A DNA stretch of 64,000 nt from Escherichia coli (GTDB lineage Bacteria; Pseudomonadota; Gammaproteobacteria; Enterobacterales; Enterobacteriaceae). Made by a program: the position numbers and the translations under genes. A model generated the notes under the pieces. The model saw nothing but the letters and a program-made list of their open reading frames with translations, ran no database searches and had not been told where the DNA came from. The stretch lies in the NCBI RefSeq assembly GCF_003334405.1, contig NZ_QOWM01000001.1. The stretch is one strand, 5' to 3'. Positions within the stretch are counted from its first letter, which is position 1, and each line of letters opens with the position of its first letter. Below are positions 7,241 through 9,714 of the stretch, piece by piece.

Positions 7241-7274
7241 TTGCGCCCCGAACGTTGAATGAATTGTGGTTCTT

Positions 7275-8051
7275 ATGTCCGAAACAAAAAACGAACTTGA
7301 AGACCTGCTGGAAAAAGCAGCAACTGAACCGGCGCACCGCCCGGCCTTTTTCCGTACTCTACTGGAATCCACCGTCTGGGTGCCTGGTACGGCGGCGCAG
7401 GGCGAGGCTGTGGTTGAAGATAGCGCGCTTGATTTACAGCACTGGGAAAAAGAAGACGGCACCAGCGTCATTCCTTTTTTCACCTCGTTAGAAGCACTTC
7501 AACAGGCGGTTGAAGACGAACAGGCATTTGTCGTAATGCCCGTTCGCACGCTGTTTGAGATGACACTTGGCGAAACGCTCTTCCTTAATGCCAAACTGCC
7601 AACCGGTAAAGAATTTATGCCGCGTGAAATCAGTTTGTTGATTGGTGAAGAGGGAAATCCGCTGAGCAGCCAGGAAATCCTGGAAGGCGGTGAATCGCTG
7701 ATATTATCGGAAGTCGCAGAGCCGCCAGCACAAATGATTGATTCACTCACCACCTTATTTAAAACCATTAAGCCGGTGAAGCGTGCTTTTATTTGTTCAA
7801 TTAAAGAGAACGAAGAGGCACAGCCTAATTTACTTATTGGCATTGAAGCCGATGGTGATATCGAAGAAATTATTCAGGCGACGGGAAGTGTAGCGACCGA
7901 TACATTACCTGGCGATGAACCAATCGATATTTGTCAGGTGAAAAAAGGGGAAAAAGGAATTAGCCACTTTATTACCGAACATATTGCGCCATTCTATGAA
8001 CGTCGCTGGGGTGGTTTTTTGCGTGACTTTAAACAGAATCGGATAATCTAA
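7275..8051 (+). CDS. sseB: SseB (enhanced serine sensitivity protein)
   Basis: ORF 7266-8051 trimmed to ATG 7275 (258 aa, MSETKNELEDLLEK). Confidence 0.93.
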   Translation: MSETKNELEDLLEKAATEPAHRPAFFRTLLESTVWVPGTAAQGEAVVEDSALDLQHWEKEDGTSVIPFFTSLEALQQAVEDEQAFVVMPVRTLFEMTLGETLFLNAKLPTGKEFMPREISLLIGEEGNPLSSQEILEGGESLILSEVAEPPAQMIDSLTTLFKTIKPVKRAFICSIKENEEAQPNLLIGIEADGDIEEIIQATGSVATDTLPGDEPIDICQVKKGEKGISHFITEHIAPFYERRWGGFLRDFKQNRII

Positions 8052-8054
8052 AAT

Positions 8055-8080
8055 ATGCCGCCCAAAGGGCGGCATTCGGG
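8055..8080. terminator. bidirectional intrinsic terminator (sseB 3' end / small-ORF transcript 3' end)
   Basis: Hairpin atgccgccc-aaa-gggcggcat with U-rich flanks on both strands. Confidence 0.6.
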
Positions 8081-8081
8081 C

Positions 8082-8219
8082 TTACTTGCTGCTCTGAAGG
8101 TTGTTAACCACCAGTAAATTGTCGCCGGAGAGACTCCGGTTATTATTTACCTCGGTTAACAGCGCACCAGAAACAATAAGTACGATACAAAAGCACCGTA
8201 TCTTCATTGTGCGGTCCAT
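8082..8219 (-). CDS. small hydrophobic protein, candidate type I toxin-like (41 aa from ATG 8207, or 45 aa from ATG 8219); ryfA/timP-like
   Basis: Hand-translated minus-strand ORF (M)DRTMKIRCFCIVLIVSGALLTEVNNNRSLSGDNLLVVNNLQSSK*; hydrophobic N-terminal segment; absent from the >=60-aa ORF track; weak SD; location matches the ryfA locus between sseB and sseA as I recall it. Confidence 0.5.
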   Translation of the reverse strand: MDRTMKIRCFCIVLIVSGALLTEVNNNRSLSGDNLLVVNNLQSSK

Positions 8220-8335
8220 GCGAAGACCGCATCACGACAGCACCACTGGCGATATTGCCGCGATAGCAAGCGCTGTGAAACACCTGCATTTACGGCCACG
8301 GAACATCCTTTCCTAAAGCCAGCGCCCGTTTGCGA

Positions 8336-8532
8336 GACGGCGGAAAGGGCCGCAGTGGATAATACACTAACAGAACAATAATAACTCTCTTTTGCTTGAC
8401 AAAAAGAGAGTTACTGGCGAGTATTGTCTCCGCTGAGACGCGCTTGCATTACTACGGTAATACAACCTGCTGGAAAGGCCGCGAACCGGACCAGCAACAA
8501 AAAACCGCCTGATTTTGGCGGTTTTTTGTTTT
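8336..8532 (+). repeat. tandem duplicated sRNA-like module, copy 1
   Basis: About 195-bp unit beginning acggcggaaagggcc..., sharing ctctcttttgcttgacaaaaagagagttactgg and cctgctggaaaggccgcgaacc blocks with copy 2. Confidence 0.75.
8433..8532 (+). ncRNA. candidate small RNA (copy 1; diverged sibling), approx. bounds
   Basis: TTGACA at 8396-8401 with weak -10 about 17 bp downstream; strong intrinsic terminator aaaaaaccgcc-tgatttt-ggcgg + ttttttgtttttt (8498-8534); ryfB/ryfC-type by location. Confidence 0.4.
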
Positions 8533-8752
8533 TTAAAGGAAAGTGAATTTACATGTTTAAGTAATATCTTTTACCGGTTAGAATTTTTAATTTTGAGCAG
8601 GATTTGTTTATATTTGTCTGAATTCGGACTAATAAGCCAGGTTATTTTATTACCGAACACGGCGGAAAGGGCCGGTGTCGATAATACGCTAAATAAACAA
8701 TAATTACTCTCTTTTGCTTGACAAAAAGAGAGTTACTGGTGAGTATTGTTTT

Positions 8753-8857
8753 GCTGTGAAGCACCTGCGTTGCTCATGTAACACAAGTCAACCTGCTGGA
8801 AAGGCCGCGAACCAGACTAGCAATAAAAAACCGCCAAATTCGGCGGTTTTTTATTGC
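8753..8857 (+). ncRNA. candidate antitoxin-type small RNA (copy 2), approx. bounds
   Basis: Predicted 5' end gcugugaagcaccugcguu is complementary, with 2 G-U wobbles, to the small-ORF mRNA leader (plus-strand 8270-8291); terminator 8825-8856. Confidence 0.45.
8825..8856. terminator. bidirectional intrinsic terminator (sRNA copy 2 / sseA)
   Basis: aaaaaaccgcc-aaattc-ggcgg-tttttt with A-tract upstream; directly downstream of sseA stop on the minus strand. Confidence 0.7.
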
Positions 8858-8868
8858 CTGTAAAATAC

Positions 8869-9714
8869 TTATTTCACTGGCTCAACCGGTAAATCTGCCC
8901 GCGCGCCCCATTCACTCCATGCGCCGTCGTACAGTTTCACGTTTGGCACATCCAGCGTCGCGAGTGCTAACAAAACCACGGCTGCCGTTACACCAGAGCC
9001 GCAGCTGACGATAATTGGTTTGTCGTAGCTGACGCCGCGACCAAAAAATATCGCATCCAGTTCATCGGTCGTTTTTAGTTCGCCTTCGCGCACCAGTTCC
9101 GTCCACGGAACATTCAGTGCTCCGGGAATATGTCCGCGACGTAAACCTGGGCGAGGTTCATCAACTTCTGCGTTAAAACGTGCAGCCGGGCGGGCATCAA
9201 TAATTTGCGCCGTATTTTCATGGCTTGCCAATAATACATCGGTTACTTTCACCACGGCTTCAGGATTAAACGCGGCGTTAAACTCTCCTTCCGGCAGCTC
9301 TACTGCACCTTCTTCTAACAGCAGATCATCGCGCTGCCAGCCTGCAAGTCCACCCCCCAGAATCGACACTTTCTCTACACCAAAGGTGCGCAGCATCCAC
9401 CATGCTCGTGGGGCTGAGAAAAGATTACCTTCGTCATAGACAATCAGGTGCTTATCCTGGTTAACGCCTAATTCACGCATCGCCACGGCGAACGTTTCCG
9501 GGCGCGGCAGCATGTGCGGAAGCGGGGAAGTGTGATCAGAAAGCGCTTCGATATCAAAAAACACTGCGCCGGGAATATGTCCATTCAGATACTCCTGAGC
9601 AACGTTACGATCCTCCTGTCCAGGCGACGCCATGCGGGCATCGATAATCTGAATTTCCGGGTCATCAATATGTTCGGCGAGCCAGTCGGCTCCTACAAAC
9701 CATGTCGTGGACAT
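8869..9714 (-). CDS. sseA: 3-mercaptopyruvate sulfurtransferase SseA (rhodanese family)
   Basis: ORF 8869-9873 trimmed to ATG 9714 (281 aa, MSTTWFVGADWLAEHIDDPE); active-site CGSGVTA. Confidence 0.94.
   Translation of the reverse strand: MSTTWFVGADWLAEHIDDPEIQIIDARMASPGQEDRNVAQEYLNGHIPGAVFFDIEALSDHTSPLPHMLPRPETFAVAMRELGVNQDKHLIVYDEGNLFSAPRAWWMLRTFGVEKVSILGGGLAGWQRDDLLLEEGAVELPEGEFNAAFNPEAVVKVTDVLLASHENTAQIIDARPAARFNAEVDEPRPGLRRGHIPGALNVPWTELVREGELKTTDELDAIFFGRGVSYDKPIIVSCGSGVTAAVVLLALATLDVPNVKLYDGAWSEWGARADLPVEPVK

Follow-up and report, generated by a model that had tools for sequence, protein, structure and literature searches.

In Salmonella, the 5′ end of the small RNA TimR (STnc2070; RyfB1 and RyfB2 in Shigella) pairs with the timP 5′UTR more than 50–60 nt upstream of the ribosome-binding site (RBS) and blocks translation, as seen with compensatory mutations and cell-free translation (PMC7667032). 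When timR is deleted, TimP protein appears, and every enterobacterial genome examined was noted to have a complementary sRNA upstream of timP (PMC7667032). In the same organism TimR also relieves the toxicity of TimP (PMC7667032, PMC11228461). When TimR binds, stem-loop 2 (SL2) opens and a pseudoknot required for initiation is destabilised (PMC11228461, PMC13000454). In Shigella dysenteriae, overproduced RyfB1 lowers RyfA1 and not RyfA2 (Fris et al., PMC5333039). RyfA1 and RyfA2 differ chiefly in a 5-nt variable region that overlaps the site (PMC5333039), and the ability of RyfB1 to discriminate between them supports allele specificity. We found no E. coli K-12 experiment on TimR repression, toxicity rescue or compensatory mutations in the literature searched, and its searchable text gave no explicit account of two K-12 TimR genes, of a K-12 mosaic or of a function for IS128.

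The window analysed here is a 64-kb stretch of Escherichia coli DNA. The original prediction was that a plus-strand sRNA with its 5′ end near 8752 pairs in trans with the leader of a small ORF on the minus strand. This agrees with the published pairing of TimR with timP, or RyfB with RyfA (PMC7667032, PMC11228461, PMC5333039). We conclude, with a probability of about 0.9, that the match is the seed–target pair of the timPR type I toxin-antitoxin system in K-12-type E. coli. The TimR–timP pairing, its position in the 5′UTR and its conservation across enterobacteria are already published and are rediscovered here.

The locus shares with Salmonella timPR the sseB and sseA flanks, the ryfA/timP mRNA family and the TimP family. 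Also common to both are a divergent sRNA with the promoter TTGACA-17-GAGTAT and a conserved body and terminator, a seed at the extreme 5′ end of the sRNA, and a target in SL2 of the 5′UTR, more than 50 nt upstream of the RBS. The seed and site differ, being CUACGGUGUGCCUGCGUU in Salmonella and allele A in the window. Furthermore, unlike Salmonella timPR, the window contains two TimR genes: the predicted cognate one is distal, 400 nt from the timP +1, and the TimR adjoining timP carries a non-cognate B seed.

The timP locus between sseB and sseA

The locus is the sseB–sseA intergenic region of K-12-type E. coli. From 7266 to 9714 the order is sseB (+), a short ORF on the minus strand, a pair of similar units on the plus strand, each with a terminator, and sseA (−). 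Across the 841 bases from 8040 to 8880, the sequence differs from K-12 MG1655 at a single base, 8606. The features are listed in Table 1.

Table 1. Features of the timPR locus, in window coordinates
Feature	Position	Strand	Basis or description
timP mRNA (formerly 'sRNA' RyfA)	8050..8351	−	Rfam RF00126; 5′ end by Salmonella +1 homology (GGCCCTTTCC)
timP CDS	8082..8207	−	41-aa TimP family protein with signal-peptide-like N-terminus
Predicted TimR-binding site, allele A, AAUGCAGGUGUUUCACAGCG	8271..8290	−	timP 5′UTR, about +62 to +81 of the mRNA
timP −10 box TATTAT	8359..8364	−	7 nt upstream of +1; read from sequence
TimR copy 1 promoter, TTGACA, 17 nt, GAGTAT	8396..8424	+	Read from sequence
TimR copy 1 = TimR-B	8430..8531	+	Alignment with Salmonella TimR; seed CGCUGAGACGCGCUUGCAUU at 8431–8450
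Rfam 'IS128' element, spacer between the two TimR genes	8485..8693	−	RF00125, 262.1 bits (gathering score 80)
TimR copy 2 promoter, TTGACA, 17 nt, GAGTAT	8718..8746	+	Read from sequence
TimR copy 2 = TimR-A, predicted cognate antitoxin sRNA	8752..8853	+	Pairing, Salmonella TimR homology and fold; seed (U)GCUGUGAAGCACCUGCGUU at the extreme 5′ end, 8752/8753–8771

The minus-strand transcript matches the ryfA family (RF00126) over the entire model (1–296 of 296, at 8050–8353), scoring 314.9 bits (gathering score 80; E = 1.9e-88), and has the family's stem-loops SL1 to SL4. Its 3′ end is a terminator common to sseB, which lies back to back with it. The +1 at 8351 is based on the Salmonella T7 template oligo EHO-1421, which begins GGCCCTTTCCGCCGTC, and the −10 box and its spacing match oligo EHO-1348 (...GGTATTATCTTTCCC followed by GGCCC). 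The ORF scores 86.8 bits with the NCBIfam model toxic_TimP (NF040796, cut-off 45) over residues 1–40, and the RefSeq annotation of timP has this position in identical genomes and is found in all E. coli genomes with the locus. The product is predicted to be a toxin, a small protein of the inner membrane.

These matches bear on a different view of the locus, proposed for Shigella, UPEC and APEC, in which RyfA works mainly in trans as a regulatory RNA and TimR/RyfB is an anti-sRNA that acts on RyfA abundance and not on toxin translation. Overproduction of RyfB1 lowers RyfA1 RNA and overproduction of RyfA1 removes ompC mRNA (PMC5333039). Deletions of ryfA alter stress resistance, fimbriae and virulence (PMC8205139, PMC13188913), and the UPEC and APEC deletion phenotypes are read by their authors as sRNA, not toxin, functions. 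However, the ORF is a good member of the TimP family, the stem-loops that sequester the timP RBS are conserved, and in Salmonella it is TimP protein that appears upon timR deletion (PMC7667032). We consider this view improbable as a replacement for toxin control; the regulatory-RNA and toxin roles are compatible, and both use the same pairing.

The two TimR genes align with Salmonella TimR, whose sequence was taken from oligos EHO-1419 and EHO-1420. Fifty-four columns are invariant in the five aligned TimR sequences: the body (CCTGCTGGAAAGGCCGCGAA) and terminator are invariant and the first ~20 nt are variable. Each copy comprises a small hairpin, the body (CCUGCUGGAAAGGCCGCGAA in copy 2), which is conserved, and an intrinsic terminator; the fold of copy 1 with its terminator has z = −3.85. 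Both promoters match the TTGACA-17-GAGTAT architecture of the Salmonella timR promoter (oligo EHO-1349), in which the −10 box GAGTAT is a weak match to the consensus. A generic promoter and terminator scan reported neither the promoters nor the terminators of the TimR genes, which were placed by homology and folding. The +1 positions (~8752/8753 for copy 2, ~8430/8431 for copy 1 and 8351 for timP) follow from homology with the oligo table of PMC7667032, which for Salmonella gives the sequence and promoter of TimR as well as the +1 of each RNA. No TimR family was matched in the Rfam scan. Membership in the Rfam families AgrB, OhsC and OrzO-P was rejected, all three hits being below the gathering scores and coming from the terminator region.

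Between the two TimR genes, the IS128 element contains a duplicated timP-type promoter (−10 at 8681–8686, predicted +1 at 8673) together with the initial ~18 nt of timP (GGCCCUUUCCGCCG), without a toxin ORF. From its promoter, the spacer is probably transcribed. The 3′ end of the element overlaps the terminator region of TimR copy 1 in antisense, and an IS128 RNA might act on that copy.

Two further observations concern the folds of these RNAs. A motif of the invariant TimR body, GGAAAGGCCGC (plus strand, 8797–8807 and 8471–8481), is approximately complementary, with a one-base bulge, to the extreme 5′ end of the timP mRNA, GGCCCUUUCC (minus strand, 8340–8351), a segment involved in SL1 and the pseudoknot. 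With minor variation, all TimR sequences inspected by eye keep the motif; the match could be a second contact or just part of TimR's own fold. In E. coli E24377A (locus L127, 471–492), a single base change replaces GAAGACCGC with GAAGTCCGC and breaks one stem pair of an otherwise invariant hairpin, GCGGUC...GACCGC, downstream of the TimR-binding site.

Predicted pairing of TimR copy 2 with the timP leader

The two 19-mers on which the original prediction was built are present, shifted by 1–2 bases: GCTGTGAAACACCTGCATT at 8272–8290 and GCTGTGAAGCACCTGCGTT at 8753–8771. On the plus strand they are identical at 17 of 19 bases. When both strands of the window were searched with up to three mismatches, only these two places matched; the chance expectation for such a 19-mer match in the window is 0.05, and two places were obtained in none of 100 shuffles. 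Both mismatches had been described as G·U wobbles, and this is correct: an A in the leader strand corresponds to a G in the sRNA strand, placing a G of the sRNA opposite a U of the mRNA. A third wobble (U·G) extends the helix to 20 bp, so that 20 contiguous pairs (17 Watson-Crick and three G·U) form with mRNA positions 8290 to 8271. Taken alone, the two G·U positions are weak evidence. The site lies 64–83 nt upstream of the timP start codon given by RefSeq and NCBIfam (8207–8205), close to the predicted 65–85 nt. With the ends placed by Salmonella homology, the sRNA does not begin downstream of 8770 and the ORF transcript does not start downstream of 8270. RNAduplex calculations on full-length RNAs gave loop-rich duplexes of about −70 kcal/mol for both TimR copies, which is uninformative; the seed and site segments were used instead.

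The proposed check, whether related loci keep the complementarity through covarying substitutions, was performed on 16 alleles or species and was strongly positive. The 16 seed/site pairs were aligned without gaps and registered on conserved sequence anchors, not on pairing. They came from several E. coli genomes, from the Salmonella oligo sequences and from 15 enterobacterial loci found by a pattern scan. The pattern, GCGGTCNNNGCANNGACCGCAC, is unspecific: it gave at least 120 loci over the genome contigs, most of them chance matches in GC-rich genomes, and 15 enterobacterial ones were usable. The Salmonella row is a reconstruction from the oligo table of PMC7667032, there being no Salmonella locus among the matches listed. 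In this alignment 95.6% of cells are paired, and compensatory changes on both sides occur at 10 of the 20 pairs, in 56 cells; none of 500 shuffles was as good, and sliding the partner by 1–3 columns left only 30–49% paired. The position of the site is the same in the 15 other alleles or species. In Yersinia, Rahnella, Erwinia, Superficieibacter, Citrobacter, Salmonella, E. whittamii and E. coli, this leader position pairs with the 5′ end of an opposite-strand sRNA upstream, and the site sequence itself is almost wholly different between genera.

The same data speak to the possibility that the 19-nt repeat is a mere relic of local duplication or recombination, with no role in RNA–RNA pairing. 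The region is visibly a mosaic of duplicated segments (8339–8430 is repeated at 8660–8750), direct repeats of this length are recombinogenic, and deletions between seed and site are found in four loci, described below. However, seed and site lie outside the duplicated promoter block, and the pairing has been validated in Salmonella by compensatory mutagenesis and in vitro translation (PMC7667032). Moreover, the complementarity persists through complete sequence turnover between genera, with double changes at half of the pairs. Because of this covariation, the relic explanation is effectively refuted, and we assign it almost no weight.

The site spans the 5′ arm and loop of the predicted SL2. 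By analogy with Salmonella (PMC7667032, PMC11228461, PMC13000454), TimR-A would bind the translation-competent conformer of the timP mRNA at SL2 and open this stem-loop. The SL1–SL3 pseudoknot used for 30S loading would then be destabilised, and no TimP would be made while TimR is in excess. The RBS itself would not be occluded by TimR.

Two TimR genes with different seeds

Copy 1 had been described as carrying a diverged version of the sequence. Our comparison does not bear this out: copy 1 is an intact TimR-B, identical over 8339–8495 to the single-copy module of E. coli 042 and cognate to timP-B, the allele that most other E. coli have. The earlier description of copy 1 was inaccurate, the homologous register being CGCTGAGACGCGCTTGCATT at 8431–8450. 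The related claim, that only copy 2 retains the target, holds insofar as copy 2 is the cognate partner, but copy 1 keeps 18 of the 20 pairs, at −33.7 against −42.5 kcal/mol. Opposite the same 20 nt, copy 1 forms 15 Watson-Crick and three G·U pairs with two mismatches, giving helices of 11, 2 and 5 bp separated by single mismatches. The energies for copy 1 range from −33.7 to −37.3 kcal/mol with the leader in the window and from −44 to −47.6 kcal/mol with timP-B; copy 2 gives −42.5 to −43.1 kcal/mol with the leader in the window. In K-12-type strains, timP is probably repressed mainly by copy 2, with little contributed by copy 1. The latter would be an orphan or heterologous antitoxin, perhaps with partial repression.

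Since copy 1 keeps 18 of the 20 leader pairs, copy 2 is possibly not the only effective repressor. Both copies could repress timP, copy 1 being sufficient or even the main repressor and copy 2 redundant. The three helices of copy 1 lie in one register, its promoter, body and terminator are identical to those of the functional single module of E. coli 042, and the functional TimR is proximal in all other species. Three points weigh against this reading, which we regard as unlikely. The cognate duplex is stronger by 6–9 kcal/mol. A change of 5 nt in the site suffices for discrimination by RyfB1 in S. dysenteriae (PMC5333039). Finally, TimR-A is kept in essentially every genome with timP-A (2030 against 1971 genomes, and all ten of those inspected), which is unexpected if TimR-B sufficed.

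Sites and seeds in E. coli fall into specificity alleles: A combines the site AAUGCAGGUGUUUCACAGCG with the seed GCUGUGAAGCACCUGCGUU, B (which has a minor variant, B′) combines GAGCAAGCGCGUCUCAGCG with CGCUGAGACGCGCUUGCAUU, and C combines ...GCAGACACCCCACAGUG with CACUGUGGGGUGCCUGCGUU; a further allele, D, is an orphan seed. In a 3×3 RNAduplex matrix of A, B and C, the cognate combinations are the strongest (−42.5, −44.0 and −37.2 kcal/mol, respectively), and non-cognate combinations range from −23.9 to −33.7 kcal/mol. The window combines a timP-A leader with an adjoining TimR (copy 1) that has the B seed, and the cognate TimR-A (copy 2) lies 320 bp farther out, beyond IS128.

We aligned the locus with modules of each type: EC476 module 1 for A, 042 and EC476 module 2 for B, and one C module. 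The leader (8239–8338) is A-type, and the stretch identical to B (8339–8495) comprises both promoters and the TimR seed and body. The terminator of copy 1 and the spacer that follows are A-type. Copy 2 has an A-type promoter block that includes the first ~18 nt of the timP 5′ end, and a B-type terminator next to sseA. On this alignment, the K-12-type arrangement is a recombinant mosaic, in which a patch of ~160 bp (8339–8495) appears to have brought in the B seed.

Other arrangements were seen elsewhere. E. coli EC476 (L126, 1244–2370) has a tandem of timP-A/TimR-A, an IS128-like spacer, an 87-nt fragment of the sseB 3′ end and timP-B/TimR-B; each timP pairs with its own TimR at −46.2 and −45.6 kcal/mol, and the crossed pairs are at −35.0 and −29.5 kcal/mol. 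A TimR with the D seed (GAGUAGACGAGAUACACUUGCAG; L123 at 1250–1365, L135 at ~2150–2265 and L138 at ~1255–1370) sits distal to a cognate B module in ~10% of sampled genomes, with a different promoter and without the small hairpin. No timP site matching TimR-D was seen, its best duplex being −26 kcal/mol. In four unrelated genomes, E. coli 06-00048 (L125, ~1671–1870), Y. similis (L071), Y. aleksiciae (L101) and C. amalonaticus (L103), both promoters and timP SL1 are deleted, and the TimR body and terminator adjoin the timP SL2 site in a direct fusion; the E. coli locus also carries an IS3 insertion. The ~20-nt seed and site are direct repeats on one strand, and recombination between them would be expected to give such fusions; seed–site deletion looks like a recurrent route of locus inactivation.

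Distribution in E. coli and comparison with other systems

A census of 5426 complete E. coli genomes found the TimR-A seed in 2030 (1623 of the K-12 subtype and 407 of the CFT073 subtype) and the timP-A site in 1971 (1644 and 327, respectively). The TimR-B seed is present in 4548 genomes, the IS128 spacer in 2243 and the timP-B site in at least 1888, an undercount, because the B′ variant breaks the 28-nt megablast word. The K-12-type arrangement occurs in ~30% of the complete genomes. A systematic sample of 20 contained six genomes of the K-12 type, one tandem A+B, nine with a single B or B′, two with B and an orphan D, one with a single C and one degenerate locus. In CFT073 and EC5654 the locus is a plain single A module whose TimR-A is proximal. 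Every one of the ten inspected genomes with a timP-A leader (H1–H7, CFT073, EC5654 and MG1655) also has TimR-A; over all genomes, co-occurrence is judged from the near-equal counts and this small sample and not genome by genome. Among the inspected genomes, orphan antitoxins are common and no orphan toxin was seen, which suggests that a cognate TimR copy is needed.

We tentatively propose, at somewhat less than even odds, that recombination in the K-12 lineage set the non-cognate TimR-B beside timP-A while TimR-A survived distally, retained by addiction-like selection if TimR-B cannot repress timP-A. If so, the locus would be a natural specificity swap, in which type I seed/site alleles diversify and recombine within a species, and in which orphan antitoxins (B here, D elsewhere) are tolerated and orphan toxins never seen. 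In K-12, the standard laboratory strain, the TimR gene adjoining timP is not the predicted cognate one, and deletion or over-expression of 'timR' must reckon with two genes that have different seeds. The three or more co-varying seed/site alleles and the orphan antitoxins are ready material for measuring how much mismatch a type I antitoxin tolerates. The K-12 mosaic is of practical use for timPR work in E. coli; it is not surprising in kind and is a minor addition to the known pairing.

The closest parallel to the arrangement is the RyfA1/RyfA2–RyfB1/RyfB2 region of S. dysenteriae, where several modules also share the same intergenic region and the RyfA variable region overlaps the RyfB site (PMC5333039). 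E. coli EC476 also has this tandem A+B arrangement. In contrast, the window has only one toxin gene left, the second module being reduced to a promoter, ~18 nt of the timP 5′ end and TimR, and the seeds are swapped relative to their positions.

Among the other type I systems of E. coli, dinQ-agrAB, zorO-orzO, tisB-istR1 and shoB-ohsC similarly have a divergent, non-overlapping antitoxin that pairs in trans with a short stretch of the 5′UTR far from the RBS. The dinQ-agrAB locus also has a pair of similar sRNAs, and repression is attributed to AgrB alone. These systems have no sequence or family relation to timPR. Unlike them, timP needs no processing of its mRNA (PMC11228461).
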